DNA of 29,194 bases, taken from contig JBHLNZ010000039.1 of assembly GCA_048941015.1 (NCBI GenBank), positions 1 through 29,194 of the forward strand, given 5' to 3'. Every line of letters begins with the position of its first letter. The stretch's first letter is position 1. The notes beneath the pieces are model-generated. The model saw only the letters and a list, made by a program, of their open reading frames with translations, did not search any database and was not told the origin of the DNA. Source of the DNA: Promethearchaeota archaeon (lineage in GTDB: Archaea; Asgardarchaeota; Lokiarchaeia; Sigyniarchaeales; SOKP01). The position numbers and the translations under genes were made by a program. Positions 1 to 7,644 of the stretch are shown here, in pieces.

Positions 1-117
1 TCCGTCTGGATAAAAATTATACCGTCAAATATCATTTCGACATTTGGTGTTGGTGTTAAGTTATTAGATATGAGAAACCCTGAGAAAGCAAGAAACTTAG
101 TAAATTTGAGCGTTTAG
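1..117 (+). CDS. 3' end of a CDS running in from the left edge (SVWIKIIPSNIISTFGVGVKLLDMRNPEKARNLVNLSV*); possibly the C-terminus of a pyridoxamine-oxidase-like split-barrel protein
   Basis: Frame 1 is open from base 1 to TAG at 115-117 with protein-like composition. The family guess rests only on the 'WIKIIP..I' strand pattern. Confidence 0.55.
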   Translation, partial: SVWIKIIPSNIISTFGVGVKLLDMRNPEKARNLVNLSV

Positions 118-195
118 TATCAAAATCGACTTAAATCACTAATTGATAATAGTTTTTAATAATTTTCATCATTATATTGATGATCTGATTACAAA

Positions 196-433
196 ACTTC
201 GGATGGGGGCTACCCGAAACAATAAGTTCTTAGTATCCCAAAACAAATCAAATTTAACGAGAGCGTATAATATGATTGAAGAAACCTGTAAGACCATGGG
301 AGCGTTACAGGGCAGGATGTCAAAAAGCCAAGCAAGGCGGGATAAGATGAAAGAGATGAATCCAGGTAATGTTTCAATTCCAAACCCTTCAATGGCGTCT
401 GAAGACAGAATTTTTAACCAAATTCTTTTTTTT
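196..433 (+). ncRNA. Candidate structured non-coding RNA between convergent genes
   Basis: Locally GC-enriched island in AT-rich intergenic DNA. Hairpins: TTCGG..CCGAA (198-218), CCTGTAA..TTACAGG (285-311), GTC-TGAA-GAC (397-406). An AT-rich TATA-like tract lies upstream (~152-165) and a T-tract follows (~424-433). No known family was recognised. Confidence 0.3.
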
Positions 434-524
434 AATTATTCAGCTTTTTGCTTTAAAAATTAAATATGAAATAAATTGATTAAATAAATATTTAAAAAAT
501 CTATCGTAGAACGATTATAAGGCT

Positions 525-1353: not shown

Positions 1354-2037
1354 TTATTCTTTGCTTAATTCAATTTTTAACCAAATTGGTAAATTTGCTA
1401 ACGTAATCTTATTAATCGAAAATTTATTTTCGAATAAAGATTTGTTTAATATACTTTTTAGTTCATTTATATCGTATGTCATTTTAAGTTGCTTATTTAA
1501 AAAGTATGGAACAAATTTTCGATTAAAGAATCCTTCATTAGAAAGATTTTTTTTAATTTCTTTTTTAAGATTTGATTTATCGTATGCTTTATGAGACTCA
1601 AACAATATAGCAGTTTTCTTTGGCTTTAATATACGATGAATCTCGTTTAGAGCATCAATTGGAGCGTTCCATAGATAAAGACTTCCTGTACATGTTATAA
1701 GGTCAAAATAATTACTCTTATAATTAGTATTTGTAATATTCCCTTGTTTTAAATCAACTTTTATATTTTTAAGGTTAGATTTCGCAAGAGCGATCATCTT
1801 TTCTGAAATATCAAGCCCATATAACTCAATTTTAGGATTTAATTTATTAATTTCGATTAATAATCTTCCATGTCCCGTTCCAATATCTAGCAAAGCACCT
1901 TCATTTATCTGTTGTAATAAAAGTTCAGCAATTTGCCTTCTTTGGATCTGCATTGGTTCTAATTGCATCATATTATCGTATAATTTAGCGGCAAATTTTG
2001 GTAATGAAGTGAAGCTTTTTTCTCCACGATTATTCAT
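1354..2037 (-). CDS. Class I SAM-dependent methyltransferase
   Basis: Motif I LLDIGTGHG, post-I GLDIS..MI..A, motif II YFDLITC, motif III EIHRILKP. Confidence 0.92.
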   Translation of the reverse strand: MNNRGEKSFTSLPKFAAKLYDNMMQLEPMQIQRRQIAELLLQQINEGALLDIGTGHGRLLIEINKLNPKIELYGLDISEKMIALAKSNLKNIKVDLKQGNITNTNYKSNYFDLITCTGSLYLWNAPIDALNEIHRILKPKKTAILFESHKAYDKSNLKKEIKKNLSNEGFFNRKFVPYFLNKQLKMTYDINELKSILNKSLFENKFSINKITLANLPIWLKIELSKE

Positions 2038-2176
2038 AAATTAAATATAAAGCAATCGTACAATTAAAAGTATCCGGTGAATCATTTCCCAAAGGATTTA
2101 TTTTTCTTAAACCATAAGTATTTAAATCTAGACGCATGTTAAAATCTAATTAAGAGAATAGAAATTATCTATTATA

Positions 2177-3055
2177 GTGAAGAGTTTGAAGTTAAAAGGA
2201 ATAGATAAATTTCGAGAAAAGCTACCAATATTTTCTGGGAAAAAAATAATTATTTTACCGATATATTGTTTTTTAGTTTTTAGCTTTAGTTTAATAATTC
2301 AACTCTATTTTGATTTAATACCATCTATTATTCCTGTTAACGGCGCATTGGGATATTTTATTATTATTTTTCCAGTTTTAGGAGTGATTTTAATGGGTTC
2401 TGTTGGGTTCTTTTTAGTATATCAAATGTGGTATAATCGAGATCGTTTAAAAGCGAAGTATGGTCAATTATCATATCAAAGAATATTTTTTGTAGGATTT
2501 GGAGGGGTTGTCATTATCTTTAGCATTGTTATAAATAACTTAATACCTTTTTATAAGTTGGATCTCACCTTTTGGTCTCAATTTCCCTTCTCAATATTTA
2601 CAACTCCTCTAACATCGTATTTTACTTTAATTTCTCCATTTCTTAGAGAAATACGCTTTTTTTTAGGAGTTTTTTTTTGTATTTTAGGAATTATAACGAT
2701 GGTTCGAGCGGTAGAAACTTTTGGTTTTGATTACATGGCTGTAATTTACCTTTATTTCCCCGAAGAGAGTGAATTAGAAGATCATAAAATTTATTCGATA
2801 TTACGACACCCAGTATATAGTGGAATCATATTGCTTTGTCTTGGTGGAATGATTATCCAACTTACTCCTTATTCAATTATATTCTTTCTCATATTATATT
2901 TTGGTATGTATATTCATATTCATTTTGTAGAAGATAAAGAATTGACTAATCGATTTGGGGATTCATATAAAGAGTATAGAAAAACGGTCCCTGCTTTTTT
3001 TGTACGTTTAAAAAACTGGGGTCAATTTTTTAAATTTATTCTTGGAAAAGAGTAG
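2177..3055 (+). CDS. ICMT/PEMT-family integral membrane methyltransferase (long form)
   Basis: Multiple TM helices; IYSILRHPVYSG motif; C-terminal ED.EL..RFGDSY.EYRKTVPAFF. Confidence 0.88.
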   Translation: MKSLKLKGIDKFREKLPIFSGKKIIILPIYCFLVFSFSLIIQLYFDLIPSIIPVNGALGYFIIIFPVLGVILMGSVGFFLVYQMWYNRDRLKAKYGQLSYQRIFFVGFGGVVIIFSIVINNLIPFYKLDLTFWSQFPFSIFTTPLTSYFTLISPFLREIRFFLGVFFCILGIITMVRAVETFGFDYMAVIYLYFPEESELEDHKIYSILRHPVYSGIILLCLGGMIIQLTPYSIIFFLILYFGMYIHIHFVEDKELTNRFGDSYKEYRKTVPAFFVRLKNWGQFFKFILGKE

Positions 3056-3164
3056 TTTTTAATGTTCATTTGCTCATTTCCGTTTACATTTTTTTAATTA
3101 AATATAAAAATTTGCAGATATTACTCCATTTAATTATAATTTATTACTTAAGAAGCGAAAAACA

Positions 3165-3773
3165 TTGGTTGTAATTGCAGCAATCAATTTTGTTATAATG
3201 TTAAGCACTTTTTTTATAATGGGATATACTTATACTATAAGTATTCAACCTATGAAGCGTTCGGAAAAATATGGTGATAAAGCTTGGGCAGATTGTAAAA
3301 AATTCCGTTCAATCGGTGGAATAGCTGAGTTTATATCTATAGGTAATTTGATCCTGTGGATTTGGTTTCCATTACCTTTAGTAGATGAGTGGATTATTAG
3401 CTCAAATATCTGGATAGGGATCATTATAGGGATTTGTATCTTGATACCATGTACTTACCTTCTGATAAGAGGAATGAAAGATGCTGGATCTGAAACTTTA
3501 AGCCCTTCTAAAGAAACTAAAATGTATGGAGGGATATATAATTATATTAGGCATCCCCAAACCCTCGGTGAGTTTCCGATGTTTCCTGCTCTAGGCTTTA
3601 TATTTAATTCTTGGTTCTTAGTAATAATCTCGTCAATTTTTATTATTATATATGCTCCAATCATGATTCATTATGAAGAAAAAGATTTGCTAAAAAGATT
3701 TGGAGAAAAATACATGGAATACAAAAAACGAACAGGTATCTTAATTCCAAAATTAAGAAAAAAGGCAAAATAA
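3165..3773 (+). CDS. ICMT/PEMT-family integral membrane methyltransferase
   Basis: GGIYNYIRHPQ and EEKDLLKRFGEKYMEYKKRTGILIP motifs; about 5 TM helices. Confidence 0.9.
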   Translation: MVVIAAINFVIMLSTFFIMGYTYTISIQPMKRSEKYGDKAWADCKKFRSIGGIAEFISIGNLILWIWFPLPLVDEWIISSNIWIGIIIGICILIPCTYLLIRGMKDAGSETLSPSKETKMYGGIYNYIRHPQTLGEFPMFPALGFIFNSWFLVIISSIFIIIYAPIMIHYEEKDLLKRFGEKYMEYKKRTGILIPKLRKKAK

Positions 3774-3790
3774 TTAAATTAAAAATCAGG

Positions 3791-4213
3791 ATGAGAGAAT
3801 TAATGATTAAAAAAAATAAGTGGTTATTTGCAGCTTCGATTTGTATGTTGTTTTATTCTATTCTCGAGTTATCAGATAGTGTTATAATTATCCTAATGGC
3901 TCTAAATGTAATACCTAACCTTTATTTAGTCTTTGAATTTACTGTTCCTATTATACAGCAATTATTAGAATCCCAACCACTAACACTGGCACCAATTTTC
4001 TGGGCATTTACCTTAATGCGAGTTATTTCCACAATAGGTCTTTTTAGGAATCTATTATGGGGTTTATATCTTGGATTGATTAGTCTTATTTTAACAATGA
4101 TACTCACAGTTTTATTTCTGCCTTTTGGAAGTTTTGAACTTCTTGCATGTAGCATAATCCTTATCCTTCTTATAGTTGGATATTATGAGAATAAACCAAT
4201 TATAAATAATTAA
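3791..4213 (+). CDS. Hypothetical 4-TM membrane protein
   Basis: Hydrophobic 140-aa ORF starting 17 nt after the ICMT-family stop on the same strand, so probably co-transcribed. Confidence 0.78.
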   Translation: MRELMIKKNKWLFAASICMLFYSILELSDSVIIILMALNVIPNLYLVFEFTVPIIQQLLESQPLTLAPIFWAFTLMRVISTIGLFRNLLWGLYLGLISLILTMILTVLFLPFGSFELLACSIILILLIVGYYENKPIINN

Positions 4214-4265
4214 AGAATAAATAGAATTGATAAAATTGAGTAAATTTATTTAATGCAAAATTAGG

Positions 4266-4805
4266 TTAATTATTATTTTTATGAAGTAAGACTATAGTTA
4301 TTAGATTTGCTAAGTTTGAGAAATCAGTAGTCTCTGGATTATCATTTTGAGCATCCCAACCAAAGAGCATTTTTGCTGCCTTACCATATTTCGATACATA
4401 CCATTTCATAATTGTCATTTTTTGGTTTATATCTGAGACATACTCTATTCGAGGTTTGAAATGATGAAATCCACGTATTACGGATATATCGTCAGGGTTT
4501 GCCCTCATATTTTTTATCCAAGTTGCATTCTCTCCTCTTGCAGCAAAGATAGTGATCGTTCCTTCATATCTTCTGTATTCTAATGGAGTTCTTCTCGTTT
4601 TTCCTGTTTTCCATCCTTTTGTCTTTAAAATCAGAAAAATCTTTCCGAATCCAAATAAAGGCAATATCCTTGCTCTATACAAAGGGATCATCAAATATTT
4701 ATTTAGGTTTCTCCATCTTTTTAAAGTTTTATTTTTAGATACTTCATCTTTGTAATGAAAATTAAACATTACTGATCCAGGACGCGGTAATTTTTCTTTA
4801 TTCAT
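4266..4805 (-). CDS. Deazaflavin (F420)-dependent oxidoreductase, nitroreductase/Ddn (FDOR-A) family
   Basis: LILKTKGWKTGKTRRTPL and W..N.RANP signature; GAGGT RBS just upstream of the ATG. Confidence 0.88.
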   Translation of the reverse strand: MNKEKLPRPGSVMFNFHYKDEVSKNKTLKRWRNLNKYLMIPLYRARILPLFGFGKIFLILKTKGWKTGKTRRTPLEYRRYEGTITIFAARGENATWIKNMRANPDDISVIRGFHHFKPRIEYVSDINQKMTIMKWYVSKYGKAAKMLFGWDAQNDNPETTDFSNLANLITIVLLHKNNN

Positions 4806-4890
4806 TTTAACCTCACTTGATTGAGATATTACTATTTATGATTTTTAAACGAATTTATTCTTTTAAATTTACTATAAATGATAGATCACA

Positions 4891-5982
4891 TTATTTTATT
4901 TTGAGGCATTGAGCCAAACATCTTTTGACACAAGCATTACAATTTATACATTTCTCACGATTTGTTAAGTCAACTTTCTTATCTTTTTCATTAAATAGAT
5001 ATAAATTCCTAGGACATACTTCTATACATACTTTGCATCCAATACATTCATCTCTCTCGATATTTATTTGACCATAGGGTTGTAATTTATATTCACCAAA
5101 CAAAAACTTCATTTTCTCATCACCTTTCTTCCAAGTTTTTGCTCCTAATTCACTTTTATAAATTGGAGTTAGTCCATGAAAATCTTCTGCCATAACCAAA
5201 GTAATTAAAAGTGAAAAGACTATGTTCCAAATTAGATAAAGAAGATTAATTATGATTATTAAGTTAAATAGAACTATTAAAAGGAGGAATATCCCCTCAT
5301 AAATCCAAACTTTTATTTTTCCTGTTTTTGTAGGAATGCTAGGCAAAATCAACATAGTTCCATAAATTATAATAACAAAAATTAAAATGGTATCTAAATA
5401 AAGAATTATATTCAAAATTGGTAAAAATATAGCAACAATCCAATAGATAACGGAAGCTAAAAGAGTTAAAATAAAGAAATATAATGTAGCCATTTCAATT
5501 CTGTTAGAGACGGGAAATCTTATTGTTCTTTGTGCCTTTGATTTATTATATTTTTGACTTATATAAGAGGGGATATCTTTAGCGTACACAGGTCCAAATT
5601 TTACATCCCACCCCGTCTTTTTTTTAATGATAAGGGGATCCATTCCAGGAGCACTTAATTGAGGTAAAATTAGAGTTCTATGTGACACAAGAAGATCAAT
5701 TCCACTGGTTTTTATAATTGACAAGACAGAATCAGTATTAAAATCGTCTCCACAGGCTCCACACCATACATTAATTCCCCTGGAAGGAGCAATTAATAAA
5801 TAACAATCGAGGTTTTTTATTGCCTTTAGAACTCTTTTTACAGTTAAAATAAAATTACATGTTAATAAAACTGGACTTTCACTTGTAGGATTTCCAACTT
5901 TTATAAGAGTTGGTTCTATCGGAAATCCAGTCCATCTTAAGAAATAACTTAGAAATAAGTGTATTGATTTTTTAATCTTCAT
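4891..5982 (-). CDS. HgcAB-like fusion protein: corrinoid-binding domain + ~4 TM + 2[4Fe-4S] ferredoxin
   Basis: GNP..ESPVLLT.N...TV, cap region GINVWCGACG (HgcA consensus G(I/V)NVWCAAGK), HRTLILPQLSAPG, GW.VKFGPVYAKDIP.Y, TM block ending DFHGLTP, CIGCKVCIEVCP and CINCNACVKRC. The ATG at 5982 follows an AGGTG RBS and is preferred over the GTG at 5991. Confidence 0.92.
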   Translation of the reverse strand: MKIKKSIHLFLSYFLRWTGFPIEPTLIKVGNPTSESPVLLTCNFILTVKRVLKAIKNLDCYLLIAPSRGINVWCGACGDDFNTDSVLSIIKTSGIDLLVSHRTLILPQLSAPGMDPLIIKKKTGWDVKFGPVYAKDIPSYISQKYNKSKAQRTIRFPVSNRIEMATLYFFILTLLASVIYWIVAIFLPILNIILYLDTILIFVIIIYGTMLILPSIPTKTGKIKVWIYEGIFLLLIVLFNLIIIINLLYLIWNIVFSLLITLVMAEDFHGLTPIYKSELGAKTWKKGDEKMKFLFGEYKLQPYGQINIERDECIGCKVCIEVCPRNLYLFNEKDKKVDLTNREKCINCNACVKRCLAQCLKIK

Positions 5983-6065
5983 TTTAGGCACCTTAATGTT
6001 AAATAATTTATCACTTTATTAAAAGAAGATATCAAAATGAATGAAATATTTATCAGATAGAATTT

Positions 6066-6725
6066 TTAAAGCTTTTTTTTTAATCTAAATAACTTTAAAG
6101 TGTCTAATAGATAATATTTTTCTTCAATTAAAGAAAAATTATACCCATCAAGCCGTTCTTCTATATTTTTTAAAGATCTAGTGGTTAATTGTGACTTAAA
6201 ATATGTAATAATTGCTAAGGGAATTCTAACAAAAAAATACACAATTTTCTTCCAAATTTTCTGAGGTTTAACCTCATCAACTAAAATGAATTCTCCGTCA
6301 TCCTTTAATTTTTTATAGATTTGTTTCAAGCAGAAATTTTGTTCATCTTGATAAAATTCACTAAATGATAAAATAGCTGTTATTTTATCAAAAGATTTAT
6401 CAGTAAATTGTACATCTAATTCAATAACCGGCATTTTAATAATTTGGATATTGTCTTTTAGTCCTTCTAATTCAATATTCTTTTTTGCTACCTCAAGCAT
6501 TTTTTCCGAATAGTCGATACCGATAACCTTTGCCCCTTTTTTAGCACATAGAATGGCAAATGTTCCTGTACCCATACCAATATCTAAAAGGATATCATTC
6601 TTAAGTACCAATTTATCTGAGATATATCTTTTGATTTTTTGTAAGCGCCCTAATGTTAAATAATTAATTCCTTTATCATATTTTTCGGCCTTCTTTTCCA
6701 ATGCTTTCATATAAACATATGACAT
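6066..6725 (-). CDS. cpaM: Corrinoid protein-associated SAM methyltransferase (CpaM-like)
   Basis: N-terminus SYVYMKALE....YDKGI..LTLG as recalled for CpaM; LLDIGMGTG, GIDYS..ML, SFDKI, FSE, DEV.P. Lies directly upstream of the HgcAB-like gene. Confidence 0.8.
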   Translation of the reverse strand: MSYVYMKALEKKAEKYDKGINYLTLGRLQKIKRYISDKLVLKNDILLDIGMGTGTFAILCAKKGAKVIGIDYSEKMLEVAKKNIELEGLKDNIQIIKMPVIELDVQFTDKSFDKITAILSFSEFYQDEQNFCLKQIYKKLKDDGEFILVDEVKPQKIWKKIVYFFVRIPLAIITYFKSQLTTRSLKNIEERLDGYNFSLIEEKYYLLDTLKLFRLKKKL

Positions 6726-6945: not shown

Positions 6946-7644
6946 TTGATTAGAAGGGGTGAGATTGATTACCTTTGTCTTAAAATTGCCCAGATAAAGT
7001 CCAAGAAACAAGAGTCTGGGTTATCTGAGCCATATCCTGAAGCAATCCCTAGAAAAGTAGAAGAAATACCAGAAATACAATATGATGCTACATTTAAAAT
7101 AGTTATATTTGGTGATCCTGGGGTACATAAACAAGGATTAACTGAAAAATTTTTAACAAATACACTTAGCTCGGATTCCACATCGACAATTGGAGTGGAT
7201 CTTAAAGTAAAGGGCATTAAAATTGATGGAAACAAGGTTAAATTAGAAATTTGGGATTTTGGTGGTGAGGAGCGATTTAAATTTTTGCTACCTATATATG
7301 CACGAGGAGCTAAGGGAGGTTTTTTCATTTATGATATCAAGAATTCTTCATCCCTTGCTCATATTGAAGATTGGTTAACTCTTGTTTGGAGAAAAATTAA
7401 TATAGAGAAACATTTTCCGATTATAATGGTAGGGATTATGCATGATGACGAGAATGAACGACAGATTTCAGCAGAAGCGGCTATAGAAATCGCTAAGTCA
7501 AAGGATATAGATGGTTTTATTGAATGTAATATTAATACAGGTGAAAATGTTGAAGAAGCTTTTGAGCAATTGACCAAATTGATGCTTGACAATGAAAGGG
7601 AAAAATTTAGTGAAGAATTACGTGAAATCAGTGATTTATTATAA
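6946..7644 (+). CDS. Rab/Ras-like small GTPase with degenerate nucleotide-binding motifs
   Basis: FKIVIFGDPGVHKQ (G1), TIGVD (switch I), LEIWDFGGEERF (G3), GFFIYDI, VGIMHD (G4 degenerate), ECNINTGENVEEAF (G5 degenerate). The TTG start is uncertain. Confidence 0.9.
   Translation: MIRRGEIDYLCLKIAQIKSKKQESGLSEPYPEAIPRKVEEIPEIQYDATFKIVIFGDPGVHKQGLTEKFLTNTLSSDSTSTIGVDLKVKGIKIDGNKVKLEIWDFGGEERFKFLLPIYARGAKGGFFIYDIKNSSSLAHIEDWLTLVWRKINIEKHFPIIMVGIMHDDENERQISAEAAIEIAKSKDIDGFIECNINTGENVEEAFEQLTKLMLDNEREKFSEELREISDLL

Follow-up and report, generated by a model that had tools for sequence, protein, structure and literature searches.

The native role of HgcA-type corrinoid proteins is a long-standing question, and the methylation of mercury by HgcA and HgcB may be a side reaction. 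A clade in which the two proteins are fused is widespread; it has already been reported from Asgard archaea (bioRxiv 10.1101/2022.11.21.517362), and tested isolates with fused HgcAB made no methylmercury (PMC10087281; bioRxiv 10.1101/2022.11.21.517362). NCBI catalogues genes for such fusions together with a partner gene, cpaM, which encodes a corrinoid protein-associated class I S-adenosylmethionine (SAM) methyltransferase, and the names of the two protein families (NF043039 and NF043040) state the pairing. Our literature searches for CpaM or corrinoid protein-associated methyltransferase returned only unrelated acronyms, and none of the papers searched mentioned hgcA together with isoprenylcysteine. 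Here we analyze positions 1354–6725 of a 29,194-nt stretch of Promethearchaeota DNA (the window; G+C content low, about 29%), in which cpaM and an hgcAB-like gene lie beside genes for a Ddn-like deazaflavin oxidoreductase of the FDOR-A type (FDOR), two membrane methyltransferases of the PEMT/ICMT superfamily (PEMT1 and PEMT2), a small membrane protein (TM140), and a second class I methyltransferase. The part from 6725 to 4891 belongs, as an unexceptional member, to the catalogued CpaM plus HgcAB-like cassette and is no new kind of system. Its PEMT/ICMT-type neighbors recur across phyla and provide a weak but real hint of the class of substrate on which the cassette acts.

The seven open reading frames (ORFs) of the stretch are listed in Table 1. 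Pfam and NCBIfam profiles place five of the seven products among methyl-transfer proteins, in agreement with an earlier note made from the sequence alone, whose gene identifications hold in every item. On the minus strand, cpaM, hgcAB-like, and the FDOR gene form a row from 6725 to 4266 with gaps of 74 nt and 85 nt; if hgcAB-like really begins at the ATG at 5982, the first gap widens to 83 nt, and both gaps fit the co-orientation with gaps under 90 nt that the note described. The plus-strand genes for PEMT1, PEMT2, and TM140 converge on the end of the FDOR gene, leaving a gap of 52 nt, and the second class I methyltransferase gene is divergent from the PEMT1 gene. This clustering exceeds chance, because the only gene of the FDOR family PF04075 in the genome adjoins hgcAB-like and two of the 12 PEMT-family genes in its 3.59 Mb lie within 2 kb of the cpaM–hgcAB-like unit.

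Both cassette proteins exceed their curated cut-offs. CpaM scores 244 bits against NF043040 (cut-off 180) over profile positions 1–215, and its SAM motif I, read in the translation, is DIGMGTG. The HgcAB-like protein scores 372.5 bits against NF043039 (cut-off 285), with residues 13–363 aligned to profile positions 4–349, and homologues of 363 residues, named "HgcAB-like fusion protein," match a start at the ATG at 5982. Pfam recognizes CdhD at residues 26–142 and Fer4 families at residues 309–364; between them, hydrophobic stretches at about residues 165–275 resemble four transmembrane helices when the translation is inspected. We aligned 22 diverse fused proteins that are 28–56% identical to that of the window. 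N74, W76, and C77 of the cap helix are invariant in this set, as are the ferredoxin cysteines C316, C322, C326, C348, C351, C354, and C358, and a second cap-helix cysteine, C80, is confined to the Asgard subclade.

Given that its domain architecture and the N-V-W-C core of its cap helix are common to HgcA, the window protein might be a genuine mercury methylase with HgcA and HgcB in one chain. We consider this extremely unlikely. The protein fails the tests for both true HgcA (NF040863, 167.8 bits against a cut-off of 275) and true HgcB (NF040864, 45.9 bits against 99). Its cap helix, NVWCGACGD, lacks the lysine of the HgcA motif and falls outside the accepted list of motifs of the type N(V/I)WC(A/S)(A/G/S)GK, such as NVWCAAGK (PMC10087281). 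In view of these failed tests, and of the lack of methylmercury production by the fused-hgcAB isolates of the studies cited above, mercury is an unlikely acceptor.

We surveyed about 90 of at least 587 cpaM–hgcAB-like loci, 80 of them obtained through a scan of one genome per species and the others from relatives and metagenome contigs. These loci span more than 10 phyla, including Promethearchaeota, Baldrarchaeota, Hadarchaeota, Bathyarchaeia, Chloroflexota, Acidobacteriota, Aminicenantes, and Spirochaetota; five high-GC loci (L086, L087, L093, L094, and L102) were covered by hidden Markov model hit tables only. cpaM lies immediately upstream of hgcAB-like in 68 of the roughly 90 loci and is fused to it in frame in 7 more. 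The junction is typically a 4-nt overlap, the gap is at most about 75 nt, and L021, where another ORF separates the two genes, is an exception. Among 41 related Asgard genomes, HgcAB-like exceeded its cut-off in 10 and CpaM in exactly those 10, on the same contigs. Single-chain CpaM::HgcAB-like proteins of 540–640 residues were found in several separate 50%-identity clusters, with at least three fusion events on the HgcAB-like tree, and the window's own genome encodes, on another contig, a second corrinoid system in permuted fusion order: a 552-residue CpaM-like::HgcA-like protein with the cap helix NVWCAARG, followed by a separate 109-residue HgcB-like ferredoxin. This adjacency or fusion, exact co-occurrence, and permuted fusion argue that the ferredoxin and the corrinoid-membrane domain belong together with the SAM methyltransferase. 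Their association looks obligatory, the unit has been fused repeatedly and in different orders, and the earlier view of CpaM and the corrinoid/ferredoxin protein as one functional unit agrees with these counts.

Two observations concern variants of the HgcAB-like protein. Several such proteins (P0136, P0205, P0217, P0240, and P0179) are about 470–500 residues long owing to an N-terminal extension of about 145–160 residues with no Pfam match, and they may represent a third fusion type. An isolated 104-bit match to the C-terminal half of HgcAB-like in genome G010 is possibly a fragmented or partly assembled copy of the cassette, since this genome otherwise shows the FDOR/PEMT block without a cassette.

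The genes downstream of the cassette follow a different distribution. The clade of the window's FDOR has been seen so far only in Promethearchaeota. It is single-copy in 21 of 25 genomes of the genus searched, the window's genome included, and 14 of these 21 are without hgcAB-like; we did not find it in any of 16 genomes from other genera, among them two that bear hgcAB-like (G038 and G040). Within the genus, FDOR adjoins hgcAB-like in four of the seven genomes holding both, and its linkage to the cassette extends otherwise to one Bathyarchaeia contig. The FDOR/PEMT1/TM140/PEMT2 arrangement of the window is found without an adjacent cassette in locus L125, and of 16 FDOR loci without an adjacent hgcAB-like gene, 7 retain neighbors that encode PEMT-family proteins or class I methyltransferases. 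Seen from the cassette, a PEMT-family gene is near in about 14 of 90 loci and FDOR in 10 of 90; about 85% of loci have neither as a neighbor. First and second neighbors outside Asgard archaea (92 and 85, or 177 ORFs in all) contain 159 and 153 Pfam families, respectively, none more than three times, and this heterogeneity indicates that the cassette travels alone. Amidase, amidohydrolase, and CoA-ligase neighbors are each limited to a few related bacterial loci.

Judged from gene content and order, the stretch is composed of two modules, the cassette and a genus-typical block of FDOR, PEMT, TM140, and methyltransferase genes. This division rests on the 14 genomes with FDOR and no hgcAB-like, on the block without a cassette in L125, and on the heterogeneous neighbors. 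The earlier note had proposed an undescribed Asgard pathway in which FDOR and the membrane methyltransferases act with the cassette. A single pathway of this kind is not supported: the cassette is spread over Archaea and Bacteria under a name already given by NCBI, it is not regularly accompanied by PEMT/ICMT and FDOR genes among the roughly 90 loci, and FDOR and hgcAB-like differ in phyletic pattern.

PEMT/ICMT-family membrane methyltransferases were nonetheless the only neighbors enriched above chance in the census. Within 1 kb of the unit, PEMT-family genes, whose assignment we checked with Pfam, reach densities of 60 per Mb in Asgard archaea and 41 per Mb in the other lineages; the Asgard value is inflated, because the Asgard loci are kin and their counts overstate independence. 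The background in five of the genomes concerned is 1.4–3.3 per Mb, so that enrichment is about 20- to 30-fold (naive Poisson P about 1e-5), and in non-Asgard lineages it drops with distance from the unit, first to 6 and then to 3.6 per Mb. Above-chance linkage was found in independent lineages: a PEMT gene directly adjoins the unit in Hadarchaeota, Baldrarchaeota, Acidobacteriota, and an unclassified bacterium, and in Bathyarchaeia two genes lie in between. On the HgcAB-like tree, PEMT adjacency changes state at least 11 times and FDOR adjacency at least 5 times. The arrangements at L047, L040, L055, L101, L105, and L031 look operon-like (Table 1). Recurrent linkage thus extends over several phyla for PEMT and is limited to one Asgard genus and one Bathyarchaeia contig for FDOR, so the part of the earlier note that treated the neighbors as a substrate clue survives in reduced form, as a hint of substrate class without an obligate pathway.

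We asked whether the linked PEMTs form one orthologous clade and rejected this idea, as they are scattered among paralogue groups on long branches. The link is consequently to the superfamily's kind of chemistry and not to one enzyme. ABC-2 (DrrAB-type) exporter genes also recur, within four genes of the cassette at about 10 loci from several phyla (Table 1); because ABC genes are so abundant this is compatible with chance, which is probably its cause.

The same survey bears on the simplest alternative, pure juxtaposition, in which unrelated functions share a variable accessory region and PEMT recurrence reflects paralogue abundance and inherited synteny. The large majority of loci that have neither PEMT nor FDOR next to the cassette, the FDOR/PEMT blocks that occur without a cassette in L125 and other loci, the spread of linked PEMTs over different subfamilies, the convergence of the two blocks in the window, and the 12 PEMT paralogues of its genome are all as this account would have it. 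It does not sit well with a PEMT density that decays with distance from the unit outside Asgard archaea, with same-strand PEMT genes separated from the cassette by 50–250 nt in four unrelated lineages, or with the Baldrarchaeum genome, whose sole PEMT gene adjoins cpaM. Nor does it readily explain why the sole FDOR gene lies next to hgcAB-like in four of seven genus genomes and an FDOR gene appears again in the cassette's cluster in Bathyarchaeia. We give juxtaposition limited credence.

Since the association of the modules, above all that of PEMT with the cassette, recurs too often for chance, we propose a reading that we hold to be moderately probable: two side-by-side modules, with no obligate pathway between them, that share a class of membrane-associated substrate or serve a common accessory process of detoxification or modification. 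Module 2 (4805–1354) most likely modifies a lipophilic or membrane-resident compound. Besides the kinship of the Asgard loci, several points weigh against this proposal. The PEMT block is convergent on the cassette in the window, so the two are not co-transcribed there. Linked PEMTs of different phyla are non-orthologous, and a link at superfamily level could reflect several unrelated functions; the 12 PEMT paralogues of the genome also raise the likelihood of chance adjacency. The FDOR passes PF04075 (F420H2_quin_red) with 40.8 bits against a cut-off of 22, though its match spans profile positions 25–76 only, and it failed TIGR00026 (40.6 bits, cut-off 46.35), so that its use of F420 is putative. 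Finally, the case for CpaM as the enzyme that would load the corrinoid is built on the fusion and adjacency of the genes.

In the most likely mechanism of the cassette, CpaM first binds SAM, as its sequence leads us to expect. CpaM would then methylate the Co(I) corrinoid held under the cysteine-bearing cap helix of the membrane-anchored HgcA-like domain, and the resulting methyl-Co(III) species would donate its methyl group, at the cytoplasmic face of the membrane, to an acceptor poorly suited to ordinary SAM enzymes. The built-in 2x[4Fe-4S] ferredoxin would restore Co(I). Overall, such a cycle would be a "reductive methylation" by SAM plus reductant, used catalytically. A more specific version has the cassette and the PEMT/ICMT enzymes, joined by FDOR in some lineages, share one lipophilic or membrane-bound substrate, with the corrinoid supplying a carbanion- or radical-like methyl transfer that lies beyond SAM enzymes and whose target would be an electrophilic carbon or a soft heteroatom. 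We regard this version as improbable; if true, the neighbors would offer the first indication of what kind of substrate the orphan fused-HgcAB clade acts on.

One alternative is the detoxification of metal(loid)s or chalcogens, in which the cassette would methylate a thiol or a soft element, for example As, Sb, Se, or Te, while the PEMT/ICMT enzymes would act on related thiol or chalcogen species and the products would be volatile or exported. MddA, a methanethiol S-methyltransferase, is a member of the PEMT/ICMT superfamily. The paralogous system in the window's genome is encoded directly downstream of an arsenite pump of the ACR3 family (267 bits, cut-off 282.8), a link kept in at least six further genomes. 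True hgcAB has likewise been reported beside acr3, arsC, and arsR (PMC7438021; bioRxiv 10.1101/2022.10.17.512643). The cassette also shows the patchy spread, the readiness for horizontal transfer, and the independence from gene context that are common among accessory resistance genes. Set against this, no ars, mer, or efflux gene recurs beside the fused form in about 180 neighboring ORFs, the PEMT proteins score 30–40 bits where the MddA cut-off is 270, and an F420H2 reductase has no obvious role. Detoxification in this specific form is accordingly a possibility that we hold to be doubtful.

Alternatively, the stretch could serve the tailoring of a lipid, quinone, or natural product: a chemically demanding, corrinoid-dependent C-methylation of a prenylated or otherwise lipophilic compound would be joined by O-, N-, or S-methylation by the PEMT/ICMT enzymes and by quinone or ene reduction by FDOR. 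All module 2 proteins are membrane-bound or membrane-associated and belong to families that act on lipophilic substrates (ICMT/PEMT and the Ddn-type quinone/ene reductase fold). Despite rearrangement, six to seven Asgard genomes keep the sub-blocks in a span of about 8 kb, and a second split-barrel gene, PNPOx-like, occurs in the islands of relatives. Yet among the 177 non-Asgard ORFs that neighbor the cassette, genes for prenyltransferases or for the biosynthesis of quinones or lipids do not recur, and the cassette is patchy even within one genus, a distribution that disfavors a core lipid role. Tailoring of this kind is, in our estimate, rather unlikely.

The proteins of module 2 could be placed in families more readily than assigned to characterized enzymes. 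PEMT1 can be aligned with the solved ICMTs 5V7P and 4A2N over their SAM-binding region at the C-terminus, where its RHPVYSG, of the RHPxYxG type, aligns with RHPSYVG of 5V7P. PEMT2 carries the variant RHPQTLGE and a C-terminal EEKDLLKRFGEKY. Against the equivalogs for ICMT, MddA, and LmtA (NF040696, NF045656, and TIGR04571), the two proteins score 30–46 bits where the cut-offs are 160, 270, and 325, and on these grounds neither is an orthologue of any characterized enzyme. TM140 has no Pfam or NCBIfam match, and the Atlas gave only a lead to DUF2127; its gene and that for PEMT2 are apparently co-transcribed. We considered whether TM140 is the counterpart of the 150-aa membrane ORF of the Bathyarchaeia locus L031 and rejected this, there being no detectable homology. 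The 227-aa class I methyltransferase passes no equivalog cut-off. It accompanies PEMT1 in six loci, and TM140 accompanies PEMT2 (Table 1).

For the FDOR, an AF2 model (pLDDT 84.6) searched with Foldseek gave as its best 12 Protein Data Bank matches only F420-dependent FDOR-A enzymes (Ddn, Rv1558, MSMEG_2027, and MSMEG_2850). F420 should be available, because the genome encodes CofD (315 bits), CofH (469 bits), and CofE (269 bits), all over their cut-offs. The Bac_luciferase family also includes F420-dependent enzymes, and on one Promethearchaeota contig (L030) a gene of this family is divergent from a single-chain CpaM::HgcAB-like gene. The islands of four relatives contain a PNPOx_N split-barrel gene of 172–178 aa, possibly FDOR-B-like, that is missing from the window. 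Elsewhere in the window's genome (G000), contig C122 carries a row of two PEMT genes and a class I methyltransferase gene without a corrinoid gene, which makes clusters of PEMT plus methyltransferase a recurring theme in this genome. Upstream of the cassette, a Ras-family small GTPase gene is divergent from cpaM, and other loci have related GTPase genes no more than three genes from the cassette (Table 1).

Table 1. Features of the stretch at 1354–6725, with related genes and gene arrangements at other loci
Feature	Locus	Coordinates	Strand	Details
Whole stretch	Window	1354..6725	Both	Seven non-overlapping ORFs
Second class I SAM methyltransferase, 227 aa	Window	1354..2037	-	Methyltransf_31/11/25 families; orthologues, 65–82% identity, beside PEMT1 orthologue in L023, L034, L037, L047, L060
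PEMT1, PEMT/ICMT-family membrane methyltransferase 1, 292 aa	Window	2177..3055	+	PF04191, 41.3 bits vs 25; PF04140 (ICMT), 26 vs 24
PEMT2, PEMT/ICMT-family membrane methyltransferase 2, 202 aa	Window	3165..3773	+	PF04191, 34.9 bits vs 25
TM140, multi-pass membrane protein, 140 aa	Window	3791..4213	+	Family-less; 17-nt gap to PEMT2 gene; orthologues adjoin PEMT2-type genes in L023, L034, L047, L060, L125
FDOR-A-type (Ddn-like) deazaflavin oxidoreductase, 179 aa	Window	4266..4805	-	PF04075; N-terminal helical extension of about 55 aa
hgcAB-like fusion, 366 aa from GTG, probably 363 aa from ATG at 5982	Window	4891..5991	-	NF043039
Ferredoxin module of HgcAB-like, residues 309–362	Window	4906..5067	-	Two CxxCxxCxxxC motifs; Fer4_10, Fer4_7, Fer4_9 matches
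Cap-helix codons of HgcAB-like, GINVWCGACG, residues 72–81	Window	5749..5778	-	Presumed cobalt ligand Cys77; alignment of fused proteins
cpaM, corrinoid protein-associated class I SAM methyltransferase, 219 aa	Window	6066..6725	-	NF043040
Ras-family small GTPase	Window	6946–7644	+	Related genes within three genes of cassette in L026, L027, L039
ACR3-family pump	L130 (G000 contig C32)	6012–7097	-	Second corrinoid system; ACR3 link also in L012, L014, L015, L016, L019, L020
CpaM-like::HgcA-like	L130 (G000 contig C32)	4301–5959	-	Second corrinoid system
HgcB-like	L130 (G000 contig C32)	3910–4239	-	Second corrinoid system
PEMT, PEMT, class I methyltransferase row	L131 (G000 contig C122)	35355–37277	+	
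PNPOx_N gene	L023	10865–11383		Inside relative's island
PNPOx_N gene	L034	5589–6125		Inside relative's island
PNPOx_N gene	L047	4052–4576		Inside relative's island
PNPOx_N gene	L048	3424–3939		Inside relative's island
Bac_luciferase-family gene	L030, Promethearchaeota	1–457	-	
Match to C-terminal half of HgcAB-like	G010 contig C74	6444–7007		
ABC-2 (DrrAB-type) exporter ATPase and permease	L021, L023, L055, L056, L058, L060, L068, L083, L091, L106			Within four genes of cassette
PEMT2, TM140, cpaM, hgcAB-like	L047, Asgard			Overlaps or 116-nt gap
hgcAB-like then PEMT gene	L040, Asgard			50-nt gap
FDOR upstream of cpaM	L097, Asgard			
PEMT then cpaM	L055, Hadarchaeota		Same strand	250-nt gap
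PEMT beside unit	L101, Acidobacteriaceae		Same strand	176-nt gap
PEMT beside unit	L105, unclassified bacterium		Same strand	91-nt gap
PEMT divergent from cpaM	L065, Baldrarchaeum		Divergent	180-nt gap; genome's only PEMT-family gene
PEMT, FDOR, 150-aa membrane ORF, cpaM, hgcAB-like	L031, Bathyarchaeia contig		One strand	

For the question of what HgcA-type proteins natively do, the census shows a unit that travels as a self-contained two-gene cassette, with the PEMT/ICMT-type neighbors as its only company enriched above chance. Together with the link of the paralogue to an arsenite pump, these results narrow the choice of substrates to try first: soft metal(loid)s, thiols, and membrane lipophiles.

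The locus can be set beside four groups of known systems that share its components, and beside a fifth that resembles it by analogy. It agrees with the catalogued HgcAB-like/CpaM cassette in passing both curated cut-offs, in architecture, and in having cpaM upstream; it differs by the extra cap-helix cysteine of the Asgard subclade (NVWCGACG) and, in the window's genus, by the frequent FDOR/PEMT block beside the cassette. With the HgcA/HgcB pair (NF040863/NF040864) it has in common a homologous corrinoid and transmembrane domain, a cap-helix cysteine, and a ferredoxin partner, whereas the window protein lies below both cut-offs, has an altered cap-helix motif, and joins HgcA and HgcB in one chain; it also has a dedicated SAM methyltransferase partner, which hgcAB is without. 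The FDOR resembles Ddn, Rv1558, MSMEG_2027, and MSMEG_2850 in passing PF04075 and in predicted fold (TM-score to the targets 0.57–0.72), and has an N-terminal helical extension in common with Ddn, but it is only 20–24% identical to the characterized FDOR-A enzymes and below the TIGR00026 cut-off. PEMT1 and PEMT2 resemble the ICMT/PEMT superfamily (5V7P and 4A2N; MddA; LmtA) in an alignable C-terminal SAM-binding region with an RHPxYxG-type motif and in passing the Pfam thresholds, and differ from ICMT, MddA, and LmtA in lying far under the equivalog cut-offs.

The fifth comparison is with the reactivation of methionine synthase, in which cob(II)alamin is reductively methylated by SAM and reduced flavodoxin. 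By analogy with this established chemistry, the cassette would likewise bring together modules for SAM and for the corrinoid with an electron donor of low potential. The folds are unrelated, however, and here the reductive methylation would be the main reaction and not a repair, carried out by a protein predicted to be anchored in the membrane.

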